A DNA stretch of 64,000 nt, from assembly GCA_018238155.1 (NCBI GenBank), contig JABCTZ010000006.1, forward strand, positions 7,321 to 71,320. Direction: 5' to 3'. A program made the translations under genes and the position numbers. This document shows, in pieces, positions 55,406-64,000 of this stretch. The DNA is from Candidatus Heimdallarchaeota archaeon. Its GTDB lineage: Archaea; Asgardarchaeota; Heimdallarchaeia; JABLTI01. The notes beneath the pieces are model-generated. The model was not told where the DNA came from. It searched no databases and worked only from the letters and a program-made list of their open reading frames with translations. The first letter of the stretch is position 1. Each line of letters begins with the position of its first letter.

Positions 55406-56095
55406 TTATCTCATCCATTGCCCTACTTTGATTCCCTTCCAAGGTTTAATATCACCATTTCTCATACCAATGAAATCTGGGATCATTCTAATGATGATGA
55501 GTATTGTGCATCCCCAAGCAAAAACCATTATCGGCCAAGTATGCCAATAGGTTCCATTAAGTGTAGAAAATTGTCCTACCAAATAAAATATTGTGTATGT
55601 TGTTGCAACGGATGCAGTTGCCATTATACCCGCTACTCCACTGTATCTGATAATTATTAACCAAATAAGTAATGAACCCCACCACACCAGAATACCCCAA
55701 GGATTGATAACAATCATTACTCCTGATAATGCTGCAAATCCTTTGCCTCCTTGAAACTTCATCCAAGGCATCCAGCAATGCCCGGCAAATACTGCAATGC
55801 CACACAGAGCTGCTAGTAAATCCAAATTTACGGGTTCTAAAGATGTTAGAGAACTAAAAAAGAAATATCTGGTTAATAATGTACCGAGAAACCCTTTTGT
55901 AATATCTAAAGACATTGTTAAAGCTGCCCAACTATAGCCTGCTGTTCGGACAGTGTTTCTAGTGCTAACGGAACCTGAACCTTCATTACGCACATCTTTT
56001 CCAGTAACCAATTTAACAATAATCCAAGCAAATGGAAGAGAACCGAAAAAGAAACCTATAATTGGTGCTAAAATAAATGGATAAATCATTTGCAT
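55406..56095 (-). CDS. plsY: PlsY-family glycerol-3-phosphate acyltransferase (bacterial-type)
   Basis: FGSLPFAWII...GKDVRNEGSGSVSTRN, LDITKG and AGHCWMPWMKFQGGKGFAALSG match the three conserved PlsY motifs. The protein is a multi-TM protein. Confidence 0.85.
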   Translation of the reverse strand: MQMIYPFILAPIIGFFFGSLPFAWIIVKLVTGKDVRNEGSGSVSTRNTVRTAGYSWAALTMSLDITKGFLGTLLTRYFFFSSLTSLEPVNLDLLAALCGIAVFAGHCWMPWMKFQGGKGFAALSGVMIVINPWGILVWWGSLLIWLIIIRYSGVAGIMATASVATTYTIFYLVGQFSTLNGTYWHTWPIMVFAWGCTILIIIRMIPDFIGMRNGDIKPWKGIKVGQWMR

Positions 56096-56762: not shown

Positions 56763-58409
56763 ATGCCTGAAATAGGTCTTGGAGAATTCGATGATCAAGA
56801 AGTATTGAAGAAATCACTTGAGATATTTGAAAAAAAGAAAAAAGAAATTCAAGATCACATTCTTGAAAGAACAGCAGTCGTTCCAGATGAAACTTTAACA
56901 GAACTTGAAAAACAATTCAATATTTCCACAGAATTAGCGAAAGCTGTTTTCGTACTAGAGTTTGAGTATCACATTCCAAGGGAACTTTCTGCAAATCACT
57001 ATAAAGCTGAAATGAAAAGACTGACACAAGCACAATATGAATTGCCTGATATCTACTCTTTTAGAGTAAGATTTTCAATGGAAGAAGGTTTTTGGATTAA
57101 ATATCTAGTAGTGGACCTTCCAAAAAAACTTGAGCAAAAAATGCTCAAATTGAAAAAAATCTATTGTTCTCTATTTGGCGATCTTGCTGCAGACAAAGAA
57201 GATGCAGCTGTATATATTATTGAAAGAGCTTTTATTTGCAGTGAGATAGTAAGACCAATTATCCATTCTTGGATGAAAGAGCATCATCGAGCAAAGTATT
57301 CTGATTGTGTTGAAATTTTCTTGTGCAGCATCTCTCGAAAAGCGAGAGAAAAGTGTTTACTGTTAGTTGAAGAAATTAGCAATAGATTTCATTCACAGAT
57401 TGATTCATTAAGAAGTATCATTACTGAAATTAGACCACAAGGATGGATATTGAATGCAAAAGAAGAGTATAATAAACTTTCAGAGAAATTGCTTCTATTC
57501 GATAAAGAAAATTATCTTGATTGGCGCTTGACTGCAGAAATCATCTTAGAAATAATGTTGTTTAGGGAATTTGATGGATCAACAAAGGAAGAATCAGTTT
57601 TTCTAGTTAAAGAAATGCCGAAACAGAAAGAAAATATTGTCACTGAAATGATGGTCACAAAAAAAGAAAAATTCATCACAGATGATATTTCGGTGATTCT
57701 TACAAAAATAATTGAATTACCAGAAAATGATCAAAAGCAGCTGATCGTAGAAATGGTACAAGAAAGCTATGATTTTGCTATAATTAAAAATCGTACAAAG
57801 CCAGCTATTTTCTCTAAGGTCTTTCTAGAAAGGATTATGGCAGAACTAATGGTTAGAAGTAATGAAATAACCAAAATAACAAAGAAATTTGATATCCAAC
57901 TAATGTTTCGCTTGTCTCCCGCAGGAGGAAAAGATCGTCGAAATTTAGATCTAGATGAAAAAATAACGGAATTACTTGAAGAATTTGTGGTGGATATTTT
58001 AAAAAGAAGAGATGAGCTAAAAATCGTTTCAACAGAAAAAACAATGAAAACAGCCGTTGAACCATCTCATGAAGAAATCGAAAAAAACTCTGAAGTGCAC
58101 TCTGCAATAAAAAATCAAAGAGCAGGAAAAATAAAGGATTCAACTGAAAAGGAATTATGGCTATTTGTAAGAGATGAATACTTGAAAGAATTATTTGATA
58201 GTGAGAAGGAACTAGTTGCCGGGGCAAAAATTTTAAAGAAATATTCACTTGATCTGGGATTATTAATGACAGAGGGAGAAGCAATATCATATTTAACCTC
58301 TGAACTCGAAAAAAGGGGTTTTTCTTTTGAAAACTCAAGCAAAGAAGATATTGATTCAAATTTGTGCAAAAGCATTTTCAGGCAGTTGAAAGAATTGAGA
58401 AAGTATTAA
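56763..58409 (+). CDS. Hypothetical helical protein (548 aa)
   Basis: Long ORF with no recognisable motif. It is the first gene of the 56.7-61.8 kb cluster of uncharacterised proteins. Confidence 0.6.
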   Translation: MPEIGLGEFDDQEVLKKSLEIFEKKKKEIQDHILERTAVVPDETLTELEKQFNISTELAKAVFVLEFEYHIPRELSANHYKAEMKRLTQAQYELPDIYSFRVRFSMEEGFWIKYLVVDLPKKLEQKMLKLKKIYCSLFGDLAADKEDAAVYIIERAFICSEIVRPIIHSWMKEHHRAKYSDCVEIFLCSISRKAREKCLLLVEEISNRFHSQIDSLRSIITEIRPQGWILNAKEEYNKLSEKLLLFDKENYLDWRLTAEIILEIMLFREFDGSTKEESVFLVKEMPKQKENIVTEMMVTKKEKFITDDISVILTKIIELPENDQKQLIVEMVQESYDFAIIKNRTKPAIFSKVFLERIMAELMVRSNEITKITKKFDIQLMFRLSPAGGKDRRNLDLDEKITELLEEFVVDILKRRDELKIVSTEKTMKTAVEPSHEEIEKNSEVHSAIKNQRAGKIKDSTEKELWLFVRDEYLKELFDSEKELVAGAKILKKYSLDLGLLMTEGEAISYLTSELEKRGFSFENSSKEDIDSNLCKSIFRQLKELRKY

Positions 58410-58964
58410 AGATGATTTTTTTTATCTGTCCTCGAAAATTGAAAATGTTTTACTCGATGTTTTTTGATTCACAGTATCGGATTGATTGCTAGCAATAACC
58501 TCTTTCTTACGATGGCTTCGGTTCAAGTTTTCAGCCCAAAAATCTAGTTCAATTGGCATTCTTTTTCTTTACCTTCTCAAGATTAGTTTGTAGTGAAAGA
58601 ATATTTCAGTAATTCAATAAAAACAACTGCAATATCGGGATAGTTACCCCAATATTAGCCTTTAAAAGAATTTGGAGAGGAAAAATAAACAAAAAGAAGG
58701 GTCTTCATAGCGACAAAAACACTGATGCTTTTTCCCACAAAGCATAAAAAGAATCAATAAAACGTACAATTAGAAACTAATTTGTCTTCAAATCTAGAAA
58801 AGCTATTTGAAGTTGCTTGTGTAAAAATATGCTCTTTGTTTGACCACTCAGAAGGACGGCTAGAACAGAAAACGCTACAAGATAAACAAGCACTTGGTAC
58901 TGATAGATTTTGAAGGAAATGGATTACAGATTAAATAATTGATAGTAGGGTAGATGATAGAACA

Positions 58965-60197
58965 ATGTCAAATATAGAAGATTTCACAAAAGAATTAGAA
59001 ATTTCTACATTCTCAAAACCAATTCTAAAAGAAATGGGGATAAAGTCAATCTTCTTAGTTACATTTGATATTATTCTAGGACCAATAGCTTATGTCAATA
59101 CATTGACACCTGAAAAAAGTGAATACCTTGAATTCTTGGAAAATCTAGCGCATCTAGGAGAATTTTATACTGGGATATCACACGCTCAAATTGATAAAGT
59201 AACAACAAGAACCGGAGAAGAGATGATAGTTGGACGCGCAACAAGAAAAGTAAATGAAATGGAATTAATTGATATTGCTGTAGCTATAGTAGACTCAACA
59301 GAATATCAAAATGAAATTGTTAAGATGCTGAAATTCGTAGTTCGTACTTCATATGGTAATCCAAAGAACTTTTGTGATTTATTAGACAGAGTACTGCTAG
59401 AATATCAAGACCTCGGAAAGAAAAATGCCAAGGCTGGAAAATTCGCTGTATATAAAGACACATCAAAAGCAAAAGTGACAAATATAGCAAAGATATATCA
59501 CAATTGGAAAGGCGTGCTCTTCATAGATTTTGAAAAAGATAACGTAAACAGCTCATTTATGCCTGATTGGATTGAAGCAAGCAAAATAAATTCACAGGAA
59601 ATAGCACAAAAAACAAGAAATATGTACGCAGAAGGAGTTATCCTTCCAAGATCAAAACAAATTTTTTCGATGGTAAGCATAAAGGGTAAACAAGTAATTG
59701 CCGTATCAACAAATAATTCACGGTTTGTAACAATAATATATCCCACAGCAGACGGAATGACAAAAATATCAACTATAGCAGAAAATATGGATATTATTAA
59801 CGAAGCTTTGAGCGAAGTAGGAATGCAAGTCAATACAGAAGCAATGAAAAGTACTCTTGAAATGATCGATAAAAGAATAAGAGTAAATGACACAAGTGCA
59901 TTAATGAAAGAAGTAATTGTTCTAATGTTGAGAGCAGAAGAGCTGATGCCAAAGAACAAGATACAACAAAAAGAATTCGAAACATTTCAAGGAGGAATAC
60001 AAAAGAAATATTTCAAAGGATTAAGAAAAGCATTCGAAGAATTTGATGGCACAAAAACAATACTAGAAATTGCTCGAAAAGCAAATGTTAGTTTGGATAA
60101 AATGGCTGATTTTGTGTCGTTTTGTATGACAAGGGGAATTGTACAAGTTTTTACTAAAAATGGCCGAACAAGAACACCTGAAAGGAAAATTGTCTAA
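58965..60197 (+). CDS. Hypothetical protein with two longin/roadblock-like modules and a C-terminal winged helix
   Basis: The beta-beta-alpha-beta-beta-beta-alpha pattern occurs twice (IFLVTFDIILGPIAYVN... and GVLFIDFEKDNV...IFSMVSIKGKQVIAVSTNNSRFVTIIYP...). The C-terminal wHTH-like segment is TILEIARKANVSLDKMADFVSFCMTRGIVQVF. Confidence 0.6.
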   Translation: MSNIEDFTKELEISTFSKPILKEMGIKSIFLVTFDIILGPIAYVNTLTPEKSEYLEFLENLAHLGEFYTGISHAQIDKVTTRTGEEMIVGRATRKVNEMELIDIAVAIVDSTEYQNEIVKMLKFVVRTSYGNPKNFCDLLDRVLLEYQDLGKKNAKAGKFAVYKDTSKAKVTNIAKIYHNWKGVLFIDFEKDNVNSSFMPDWIEASKINSQEIAQKTRNMYAEGVILPRSKQIFSMVSIKGKQVIAVSTNNSRFVTIIYPTADGMTKISTIAENMDIINEALSEVGMQVNTEAMKSTLEMIDKRIRVNDTSALMKEVIVLMLRAEELMPKNKIQQKEFETFQGGIQKKYFKGLRKAFEEFDGTKTILEIARKANVSLDKMADFVSFCMTRGIVQVFTKNGRTRTPERKIV

Positions 60198-60370
60198 GTA
60201 AAAACAGTAACAAACAAACAATAAATTGAAAATAAGACTTATTTTTGATAAAAAAATTCACAAACAAAATAGCGATACATTCTTTTGTATTGAATAAAAG
60301 AGGCTATTACTTCACAAAATGAAGCGATAGAATAAATGAATAAATAAGTTGGGTGTGTGTGAAATTGACA

Positions 60371-60652
60371 ATGCAATATGTAGTTAAGAAAATGGCAAAA
60401 ATACATTGTGCAAAAGGACCAAAGGGCTGCAAGAAATGTCAAGAATATGTGAAAGAGATAAGATATGCATTATTGGATACCAATCCACAAGAAAATGAAT
60501 TAGCAGCAAGACCAATGATAGAGTTGGAAATAGCTAGCGGCGAAAAAATTTGGGTAACTTTTGACATAATAGCCTATTTTGATACATTGGATGCAGTAAA
60601 AGAATATGCAGTAAAAAAAGGCATTGAAATTGAGCAAATAATTGAAGAATAG
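60371..60652 (+). CDS. Small hypothetical protein
   Basis: 93-99 aa ORF (ATG at 60371, GTG at 60353) with a CAKGPKGCKKC cysteine pair near the N-terminus. Confidence 0.45.
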   Translation: MQYVVKKMAKIHCAKGPKGCKKCQEYVKEIRYALLDTNPQENELAARPMIELEIASGEKIWVTFDIIAYFDTLDAVKEYAVKKGIEIEQIIEE

Positions 60653-60760: not shown

Positions 60761-61813
60761 TCAGAAACTTAAACCAAAAAAAGAATGCTTCTCAATTTGT
60801 TGTTTAAGATCAGGTTTTATCTGTATGCAAATATCAATAACTAAAGTCATTAAATCTTCTGAAGTCTGTTTAGTAAATTTCTTGAATTGTTCACTGTCAA
60901 TTTTATCATTTGAACACAATCTTAACAAGTCAATACATTTTTGAATAATATTACTCATTTCCTTTTCATATGTTGCACGAATTTCAATTTCTGTTTTTTG
61001 CTTTCGCAAATTTTTTATCAAAGCACGAAGAATTTTGGTACTTTTTGAACCATAAACAGTTCTCTTTTCAAATGAAATAGTTGTTACATCAGCATTTTTA
61101 TAATTTTTAATAGATGCCTGAGGAACGCCAATAACATTAACTGTTTGAGGAATTACATATGAGCTTGAATAGTTGATCACTTTGTGAAAGGGAAAAGGAG
61201 TAAGTAAATTCAGAATAGAAACTGTATTAGAGGCAGATAATATATCACCACAAATGATTATTGTTTTGTAAGACAATAAGGCATATATAACGGCATCTAA
61301 ATTGGATTTTATATGCTCTAGAAGAAACGTGATAGAAACATCAGTAGCGGTATTCATCTTAGTACGAAAAACAGCTAAACTCTCTTCTGAAAACCTTTTC
61401 ATTTCAGTTGAGCTTCGATCAAAAGAGGATAAAACATTATCAATTATTTTATCAATTAGTTGTTCAGCTTCATTGGAGAAGCAGTAATCTGCGTGAATCT
61501 CTTTAATTTCAAATGAAATTTTGGATGCTATTTTAGATAGAATCTGATCGATTATTTCCCTTTTAAAAGCTATATTGATATCCTTAATAATGACAACACC
61601 AAAATACTTTCTTATTTCCATATATATTTCATGTGTTTTTGTAGCAAAGTATTTCGCTTCACCAACATCTATTGTAGATAGAAATGCCTGTATGGCTGAA
61701 ATAGCTCCTGAAAAAAGAGTAGCCCTGTCAATAGATTCTTTTTCTATTGATTGCAATTTTCTGAAATATAGAGGAAGTCCACTTCGAGAAATAATATAAA
61801 CAGCATCTAGCAT
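60761..61813 (-). CDS. Longin (uDENN-like) + cDENN-like + helical (dDENN-like) protein
   Basis: N-terminal longin pattern (AVYIISRSGLPLYF / ATLFSGAISAIQAFLSTI / YFATKTHEIYMEIRKYFGVVII). The core DAVIYALLSYKTIIICGDILSASNTVSILNLLTPFPFHKVINYSSSYVIPQTVNVIGVP resembles the cDENN signature. The tail is helical. Confidence 0.6.
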   Translation of the reverse strand: MLDAVYIISRSGLPLYFRKLQSIEKESIDRATLFSGAISAIQAFLSTIDVGEAKYFATKTHEIYMEIRKYFGVVIIKDINIAFKREIIDQILSKIASKISFEIKEIHADYCFSNEAEQLIDKIIDNVLSSFDRSSTEMKRFSEESLAVFRTKMNTATDVSITFLLEHIKSNLDAVIYALLSYKTIIICGDILSASNTVSILNLLTPFPFHKVINYSSSYVIPQTVNVIGVPQASIKNYKNADVTTISFEKRTVYGSKSTKILRALIKNLRKQKTEIEIRATYEKEMSNIIQKCIDLLRLCSNDKIDSEQFKKFTKQTSEDLMTLVIDICIQIKPDLKQQIEKHSFFGLSF

Positions 61814-62320: not shown

Positions 62321-63084
62321 TTTGACATCACATCCTTCTATTTGGAAATAGTTATAAATCTTTTTTTAGCACAAAAAAAACACTTATTATAAAAGTAACA
62401 GTAAACAGATAAAAAATACTCTCTCCAGAGGAAAAATTAACAGTAAAAGTAAAGAGAAAATATTTTATTCCAACAACGGGAATAATAAACATGAGGAAAG
62501 GTTTTAATACTACTGCTTCAAAACAAAACAAGTCAAAAGACGAAAACTCGGGATGGAACGCAAGAGAAATAAAAACTTGCAGACCATTTGCTTATTGGAG
62601 CAAAAGTTTAAAAACAAAAAACTTCACCGACAGAGATTAGTTTCTTCATGAAACTGCTCGCACCGTATATGAAGGCGACAATCCGACTAGGAGCATACCG
62701 CTCTAGAATGACAGGTTGCAAAAATCCAAGCGAGCAAACAATGAAAAAAGAAACGAAAAATCTCAAAAAAATAAATAATATTAAATAACAATAAATAACA
62801 TCAAAAAATAATAATCATTATGTTTACTATGAGATCCCGAAATAAAACGGTTCGGGGTTGATGAAAACCAACTCGCGCTATTATATATTACCCCCAATAG
62901 AATAAAAGCAAAATTGCATGGTTAAAAGACATGTAAAGGTTGTACAAACTAATAATTCCTACTGTTAGAAAGCAAATATTTTTCTAGTGGAAAGTAAGAT
63001 CTTGTTAATAGTAAACCCGTACACAAAAAACCCTGTTATGTTTATACCATAAATGGTCCATAACTAATCAAAAACAGGAATCAA

Positions 63085-64000
<916 letters not shown>

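Follow-up and report, generated by a model that had tools for sequence, protein, structure and literature searches.

Longin-based platforms that serve as GTPase-activating proteins (GAPs) or guanine-nucleotide exchange factors (GEFs), among them GATOR1, folliculin, C9orf72-SMCR8 and Mon1-Ccz1, govern nutrient signalling and membrane identity in eukaryotes, and their origin is a question of eukaryogenesis. NPRL2 and NPRL3 (yeast Npr2 and Npr3) combine a longin domain with two or more winged helix-turn-helix (wHTH) repeats (PMC3747258) and belong to GATOR1/SEACIT, the GAP for RagA/B (Gtr1). According to PMC12290439 (section 2.4), NPRL2, FLCN, SMCR8/C9orf72 and certain Asgard longins share a 'GP' motif with an arginine finger at its side, a feature that non-GAP longins lack; in NPRL2 the finger next to the GP motif is Arg78. 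Asgard archaea also possess 'NPRL2-like' proteins, in which an NPRL2-type longin is joined to an NPRL2-like C-terminal domain (Liu et al., bioRxiv 10.1101/2020.10.19.343400; Nature 2021), and SAMTOR has been found physically bound to GATOR1-KICSTOR (title of PDB 9o5d). Here we compare with these systems an unannotated gene, T, from a Candidatus Heimdallarchaeota archaeon, located in a window of 64,000 nt (the whole stretch of DNA analyzed; contig JABCTZ010000006.1, positions 7,321 to 71,320). T (58965..60197, plus strand, ATG start) encodes a double longin/roadblock and winged-helix protein of 410 residues that is NPRL2/NPRL3-like by fold.

The open reading frame (ORF) of T stands in the ORF listing just as the earlier note on this window had described it, and T is a genuine conserved gene and more than a chance ORF, given its 25 homologues at 44-87% identity, its relatives at 15-25% identity and its full-length orthologues in several families. 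An AlphaFold2 model built on an alignment of the 25 homologues, with secondary structure assigned by DSSP, reached a mean predicted local distance difference test score (pLDDT) of 80.9 and a predicted template modelling score (pTM) of 0.61, and in this model the fold of T is two longin/roadblock modules followed by a C-terminal winged helix. The first module, D1 (residues 8-130; 58986..59354, plus strand; delimited by DSSP and VIA), is a roadblock/longin alpha-beta domain with strands at 26-35 and 39-46, a helix at 53-64/67-73, strands at 78-80, 86-96 and 99-109, and a closing helix at 115-129. A long helix and a disordered stretch lead on to the second, D2 (residues 181-306; 59505..59882, plus strand; likewise delimited), a longin domain with strands at 181-188 and 193-195, a helix at 201-205/210-222, strands at 235-239, 242-248 and 254-260, and a helix at 268-285. 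Helices follow, the last elements being helices 366-372 and 377-389 and strand 393-397, within the winged helix (residues 315-398; 59907..60158, plus strand). The latter is matched by VIA at Z 8.0 over 316-399 (rmsd, or root-mean-square deviation, 2.3-2.5 over 68-73 aligned residues), with PerR as a further winged-helix match at Z 5.7, and by Pfam HTH_47 weakly (E 0.081). The earlier note had read a beta-beta-alpha-beta-beta-beta-alpha pattern twice, then a helical region and a wHTH-like end, and because the model shows D1, D2 and the winged helix at nearly the same residues, that reading was correct.

Searching the PDB with this model using Foldseek recovered longin/roadblock folds and placed a GATOR1 chain, 9o5a_H, at the top (E 2.9e-5, probability 1.00, 391 aligned columns on a 370-residue chain), with NPRL2/NPRL3 chains of GATOR1/SEACIT taking ranks 1, 2, 4 and 5 (E 2.9e-5 to 2.8e-4), followed by MON1A/CCZ1, the yeast SEA complex, Fuzzy-Inturned and BLOC-3. 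Which of the GATOR1 chains are NPRL2 (~360-370 residues modelled) and which NPRL3 (400-460) is our own assumption from chain length. In a second look with VIA, which cannot exclude folds outside its listing, the best 8 chains were all GATOR1/SEAC (Z 9.2-10.9), with model residues 22-398 collinear with chain residues 3-327, and single-domain longins scored lower (Z ≤8.3); a VIA search made independently of Foldseek agrees. FLCN (8dhb_J, Z 6.9), C9orf72-SMCR8 (Z 7.1) and DENND1B (Z 6.3) match only the longin part, residues 169-312, after which come winged-helix matches, and a shape search of the ESM Atlas returned NPR2 (PF06218) clusters, DENND11 and C9orf72. The likeness to eukaryotic multi-longin GTPase regulators proposed in the earlier note thus holds, with NPRL2/3, Mon1-Ccz1 and HPS/BLOC-3 as the best structural matches and C9orf72-SMCR8 scoring lower.

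Taken singly, the modules have relatives of their own. D1 occupies the place of the N-terminal longin of the GATOR1 chains, model residue 22 pairing with chain residue 3 in the collinear VIA alignment, and among single domains comes closest to roadblocks, superposing on the C-terminal roadblock domains of Lokiarchaeota Rag-like GTPases (Z 6.7, 6.6) and on Roadblock2 (6.3), MglB (6.2) and LAMTOR (6.0). D2 comes closest to longins, namely the N-terminal domains of AP sigma and mu subunits, TRAPP subunits and the Sec22/VAMP7 longins (Z 7-8.3), and the longin domain of the Lokiarchaeota Roadblock-Longin protein 8yqg_A (Z 8.2). Profile alignment of D1 against D2 with hhalign revealed no similarity, so the two are not recognizable as a recent duplication.

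Conservation was scored over 22-24 sequences reaching down to 15% identity (alignment A2 with 22 sequences; alignment A5 also including D1-only proteins). The invariant residues of the T family are F34, D35, G39, Y68 and G70, to which the full-length set adds G362; conservation is at least 90% at P40, E66, R91, P329 and R390. Gly39-Pro40 (59079..59084, plus strand; G39 in 22/22 sequences, P40 in 21/22) opens D1 strand 2 within an F34-D35-x3-G39-P40 hairpin and so supplies a GP motif at the strand 1-strand 2 hairpin, the position looked for in NPRL2-type longins. Arg91 (59235..59237, plus strand) lies in D1 strand 4 (86-96), before the hairpin that leads into strand 5, and is an arginine in 20/22 sequences of A2 and in at least 90% of A5. 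The FDx3GP hairpin and Arg91 together are suggestive, recalling the GP/arginine signature of GAP-type longins. The third helix of the winged helix (377-389) has a hydrophobic/acidic character in every one of the 22 sequences, LDKMADFVSFCMT being one example, and its net charge averages -0.6, a composition that argues against DNA reading by this domain as far as sequence can tell.

Set beside the described systems, T shares with NPRL2/NPRL3, its best structural match in both Foldseek and VIA, an N-terminal longin-type module and a C-terminal winged helix, and with NPRL2 in particular the GP hairpin in the N-terminal module (an NPRL2 feature per PMC12290439), where it also has a conserved arginine that is a candidate counterpart of the NPRL2 finger. 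It differs in having a second longin module and a single winged helix where NPRL2/3 carry further wHTH repeats, in being present as one copy in its own genome, where neither a paralogous partner nor Iml1/DEPDC5 was found (IML1, PF12257, hidden Markov model (HMM): no match at E ≤1), and in its conserved gene partners, a helical protein (A3) and a methyltransferase-like protein (A4). By sequence, T falls outside the NPR2 and NPR3 families: Pfam hmmscan of T and of 22 family members returned no family and no NPR2 (PF06218) or NPR3 (PF03666) match at E ≤1. Conceptually, T and the Asgard 'NPRL2-like' proteins described by Liu et al. fall into one class of eukaryotic signature proteins, whereas the T family is Heimdall-group-wide and has two alpha-beta modules in ~400 residues. 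The tri-longin RabGEF subunits (Mon1, Ccz1, Fuzzy, Inturned, HPS1, HPS4) are, like T, multi-longin single chains (Foldseek E 6.7e-5 to 2e-2; VIA Z 6.5-7.4 on D2), but have three longins where T has two longin-type modules and a winged helix, with no paralogous partner in the genome. Relative to MglB/Roadblock-LC7 and the Rag C-terminal roadblocks, including those of Lokiarchaeota, on which D1 superposes (Z 6.0-6.7), and to 8yqg, whose longin domain superposes on D2 and which places a roadblock-longin tandem among solved Asgard proteins, T has in addition its C-terminal winged helix and a long linker of helices, and no sequence similarity to them was detected. Asgard longins with the GP/arginine signature (2025, PMC12290439) and the Loki roadblock-longin 8yqg are already known; what is distinct in the T family is the second longin-type module, the single winged helix, the spread over most Heimdall-group families and the partner genes of its own.

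To describe that spread, we scored T, A3, A4 and a neighbouring 350-aa gene for full-length orthologues among 301 Asgard genomes, with families numbered such that f1 is that of the window's own genome (G000) and f9 lies outside the class. T is a single-copy conserved gene across most Heimdall-group families, with full-length orthologues in 8/10 genomes of f1, 25/29 of f2, 10/11 of f3, the one genome of f5 (1/1) and both of f9 (2/2), and none found in f4 (0/21) or f6 (0/3). It is single-copy in its own genome (90.7% complete), and orthologues elsewhere are likewise single-copy. All 25 closer homologues come from Asgard metagenome-assembled genomes (MAGs), labelled at source as Heimdallarchaeota, Gerdarchaeota, 'Thorarchaeota' or Asgard group, and an exhaustive HMMER search added the full-length relatives at 15-25% identity, whose MAGs carry the labels Heimdallarchaeaceae, Kariarchaeaceae, Wukongarchaeota and Promethearchaeota. 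Against Loki-like genomes, the T profile matches only the C-terminal winged-helix stretch of ~330-aa ORFs (E ~1e-4). Family f20 has T as ~440-aa paralogues in 5/5 genomes. Two f20 paralogues of ~430 aa each stand beside a large gene (947-1204 aa) for a HerA/DUF87-like P-loop ATPase (L048:8490-12104 and L049:7568-10411, both minus strand), these two ATPase genes being homologous to one another; no GTPase gene was seen around the f20 paralogues, whose neighbours include HerA/DUF87-like ATPases, Cdc6 and MoaC.

Comparing the neighbourhood of T at 24 loci revealed a methyltransferase-like gene, A4, of ~330 aa, which in f2, f3, f5 and f9 lies 3' of T on the same strand across a gap of ~30-190 nt (examples are L035:7189-8235, L041:7247-8218 and L046:2409-3404). 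The T-to-A4 adjacency is found in 24/24 genomes of f2, 10/10 of f3, 1/1 of f5 and 2/2 of f9, that is, in 37/37 assessable genomes, and flanking genes other than A4 vary among T loci of different families. The phyletic patterns of the two genes are nearly identical, A4 being present in 9/10 genomes of f1, 26/29 of f2, 10/11 of f3, 1/1 of f5 and 2/2 of f9 and not found in f4 (0/21), f6 (0/3), f11 (0/76) or f14 (0/68) among the genomes scored. In the window's own family, however, T and A4 are unlinked (0/8 genomes), and the own-genome homologue of A4 (G000:C15:224484-225431; L055:1489-2463) sits between genes for an actin-like ATPase and a helicase. A4 falls into three family-specific clusters that are distant homologues of each other (blastp 2e-6, 1e-3), and its alignment combines an N-terminal winged-helix-like region with a class-I methyltransferase-like Rossmann domain. 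Its profile and Pfam matches are generic methyltransferases, all below threshold, with the Bmt2/SAMTOR family not among them. The G-x-G-x-G motif for S-adenosylmethionine (SAM) is intact in f2 (LNWGxGSGY), but f3 and the own-genome copy have it in degraded form, and given this degradation some forms of A4 may be pseudo-enzymes or sensors.

Upstream of T lies A3 (56763..58409, plus strand), whose 548-aa product is all-helical in a model with pLDDT 73, has 31 homologues and belongs to no known family. Full-length A3 was found only in f1, where all genomes scored possess it (10/10), and it immediately precedes T, in the same orientation and across a gap of ~540-610 nt, in all 8 same-genus genomes that carry both on one contig, the own genome included; its orthologue at the Gerdarchaeota-labelled locus L002 is 39% identical. 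The N-terminal ~250 residues of A3 form a domain that is widespread in Asgard genomes, and a gene with this domain adjoins T divergently at 2/2 loci of f9 and 3/5 loci of f3, so that the association of T with A3 outlasts rearrangement. The domain also occurs in ~400-aa ORFs, as in 41/76 genomes of f11, and the own genome has a paralogue (G000:C7:304459-305166). For A3 we found no Pfam family, no Foldseek match in the PDB at E ≤0.1 and no usable match by ESM Atlas features, and its N-terminal domain taken separately has neither a Pfam family nor a recognizable fold match. A wide VIA search returned one helical-bundle match (6x6s_AM, Z 11.0, residues 307-417), the remainder being noise, and that noise includes a TBC1D22A match (Z 5.9, rmsd 12 Å), which we did not count as making A3 a TBC relative. 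Within the 555-nt gap between A3 and T is a 45-aa ORF on the minus strand (58422..58559; no Pfam family), convergent with A3 and divergent from T, whose nucleotide block and peptide ends are conserved in genomes G123 and G289 and at locus L004 (start MP[IV]E.D.WA, pattern MP[IV]E..W...SIF[ED]), with a gene of 49-50 aa annotated at the site in the public records of L001 and L004. Because of this conserved minus-strand ORF, A3 and T are probably on separate transcripts.

Given the fold ranking and the signature-like residues of D1, we put the probability that T is a cytoplasmic protein of the longin/roadblock class that regulates a small GTPase or serves as its platform at about 0.5. The many small GTPases encoded in the own genome, four strong Rag-like genes among them, are a context that speaks for this role. 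As such a regulator, we infer, D1 and D2 would give in one chain the two-longin platform that eukaryotes assemble from two subunits (NPRL2-NPRL3, FLCN-FNIP, C9orf72-SMCR8), with D1, through its GP hairpin and arginine, facing the nucleotide pocket as the catalytic-type half. The winged helix, its third helix being hydrophobic/acidic, would serve as a protein-docking module rather than for reading DNA.

Several observations weigh against this role. Whole-chain TM-scores against the GATOR1 chains are ~0.18 and the rmsd of the collinear alignment is 13-15 Å, so the resemblance lies in domain order and domain folds and not in rigid superposition. Profile searches of PDB sequences with full-length and D1-only profiles returned noise and no NPRL chain, and the NPR2 and NPR3 HMMs had no match over the own genome at E ≤1; with no Pfam or PDB sequence profile detecting the T family, the NPRL2/3 link is a structural one only. 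Longin/roadblock folds are also present in proteins with no GTPase-regulating role, and because a G-x-P turn is common at the same hairpin of roadblock/LC7 domains, the GP motif of T is suggestive and not diagnostic. Arg91 is a candidate arginine finger, which by topology would lie beside G39-P40. No GTPase gene adjoins T at any of the 24 loci, and none of the small GTPase genes of the own genome is linked to T. One of the Rag-like genes, L057:1737-2663, was considered as a client of T and rejected, since its orthologue-level matches are confined to f1 and f4 and do not follow T. As to the other Rag-like genes, contig C8 of the own genome carries two of the strongest (Gtr1_RagA; 407 and 581 aa) side by side and convergent (L056:2425-3648, plus strand; L056:3721-5466, minus strand), and 48 nt past a third (L058:1466-2425) begins a 353-aa ORF that shares its strand.

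The winged helix allows T to be read instead as a one-component transcription regulator, in which two sensor-type alpha-beta domains would control a DNA-binding output. A C-terminal winged helix is the usual prokaryotic output of this kind, and the weak HTH_47 match, the PerR match and lower-ranked Foldseek matches to phytochrome/PAS sensors are in line with it, as is, as a lead only, the nearest Atlas cluster by language-model features, a Thorarchaeota family 52% of which has TrmB (score 0.86). Yet the would-be recognition helix is hydrophobic/acidic family-wide, the top fold matches are GTPase-regulator longins and not sensor domains, and NPRL2/3 too have winged helices (PMC3747258), and so we consider a transcription factor less likely, indeed unlikely. 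Somewhat better placed, though still doubtful, is a role in which T serves A4 as regulatory or adaptor subunit with no GTPase involved, D1 and D2 binding a ligand or substrate protein and the winged helix docking on the N-terminal winged helix of A4. The same-strand tandem in every assessable genome of four families whose other flanks differ, the nearly identical phyletic patterns with joint absence from f4 and f6, and the weak but consistent class-I methyltransferase likeness of A4 all point this way. Against it stand the unlinked genes in T's own family, the degraded G-x-G-x-G motif of f3 and f1, by which catalysis may not be the point, and the NPRL2/3-like fold, which suggests GTPase regulation. 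The close coupling of T and A4 would also accommodate T controlling a SAM-binding protein or being controlled by one. The roles of A4 subunit and GTPase regulator are not mutually exclusive. A combination of them, in which T and A4, possibly with A3, which accompanies the pair in several families, form a metabolite-gated GTPase switch by analogy with GATOR1 and SAMTOR, we regard as a long shot; A4 would sense SAM or a related metabolite and thereby gate T, whose GAP-type platform would have a Rag- or Arf-like GTPase as its target. Its sole support is the strict T-A4 gene pairing and the two fold classes. As with SAMTOR and GATOR1, a protein of class-I methyltransferase fold is paired with one of NPRL2/3 type, here as a strictly conserved gene pair, but A4 has no specific Bmt2/SAMTOR similarity and the pair is split in the own family.

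The partner named in the earlier note was another gene, a putative longin-DENN-like (folliculin-like) ORF of 350 aa on the minus strand (60761..61813). T and this gene are convergent, as the earlier note had stated, with a 99-aa ORF (60353-60652) in between, and together they were proposed to form a heterodimeric longin platform, perhaps with the 99-aa product as a third part. Both products are longin-type and their genes are 564 nt apart, eukaryotic longin regulators work as heterodimers (PMC3747258), and the convergent arrangement recurs in G123, the closest relative, at a distance of ~1.5 kb. However, the intervening ORFs of G123 are different ones, and the 350-aa gene has just 3 close homologues in a large protein collection and full-length orthologues in 3/301 genomes: the own genome, G123 (72% identity) and G145 (47%), where it and T are on separate contigs. 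T is far more widely conserved, and the 350-aa gene is absent from near T at 22/24 loci and in roughly 45 other T-carrying genomes; six further same-genus genomes with T and A3 lack it as a neighbour of T. A 351-aa ORF downstream of T in L002 was considered as a homologue and rejected as unrelated. By hhalign, neither D1 nor D2 has profile similarity to the 350-aa family. Beyond the nearest relative, the two genes are thus close to never co-located, and since they adjoin in the own genome and G123 alone, the juxtaposition is recent and local. A specific partnership of T with its folliculin-like neighbour is not supported, and we hold the heterodimer to be very improbable.

The rest of the surroundings is as follows. 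The window is low-GC archaeal DNA (G+C ~33%), and an archaeal 16S rRNA gene begins ~1.3 kb past the 350-aa gene, its 5' part (63084-64000, plus strand; Rfam RF01959, 814 bits) running off the window end. The 99-aa ORF (plus strand) is Cys-rich (HCAKGPKGCKKC), has a weak, sub-threshold Pyrid_ox_like match (E 3.6e-4) and has a homologue farther downstream of T in G289 (L050). On the other side, a gene for a PlsY-type glycerol-3-phosphate acyltransferase (55406-56095, minus strand; PF02660, E 5.5e-35), a lipid enzyme of bacterial type found here in an archaeon, is kept just upstream of A3 in L001, L004, G289, G259 and G123.

For work on T itself, the folliculin-like pairing is a local juxtaposition only, and the methyltransferase-like and helical proteins are the better partners to pursue. 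If T and A4 did form a metabolite-gated switch, it would date the nutrient-sensing logic of the target of rapamycin (TOR) pathway to before eukaryogenesis. The T family itself, compact and single-chain, with an NPRL2/3 build, a defined motif and fixed partners, is tractable for asking what role such platforms had before eukaryotes.

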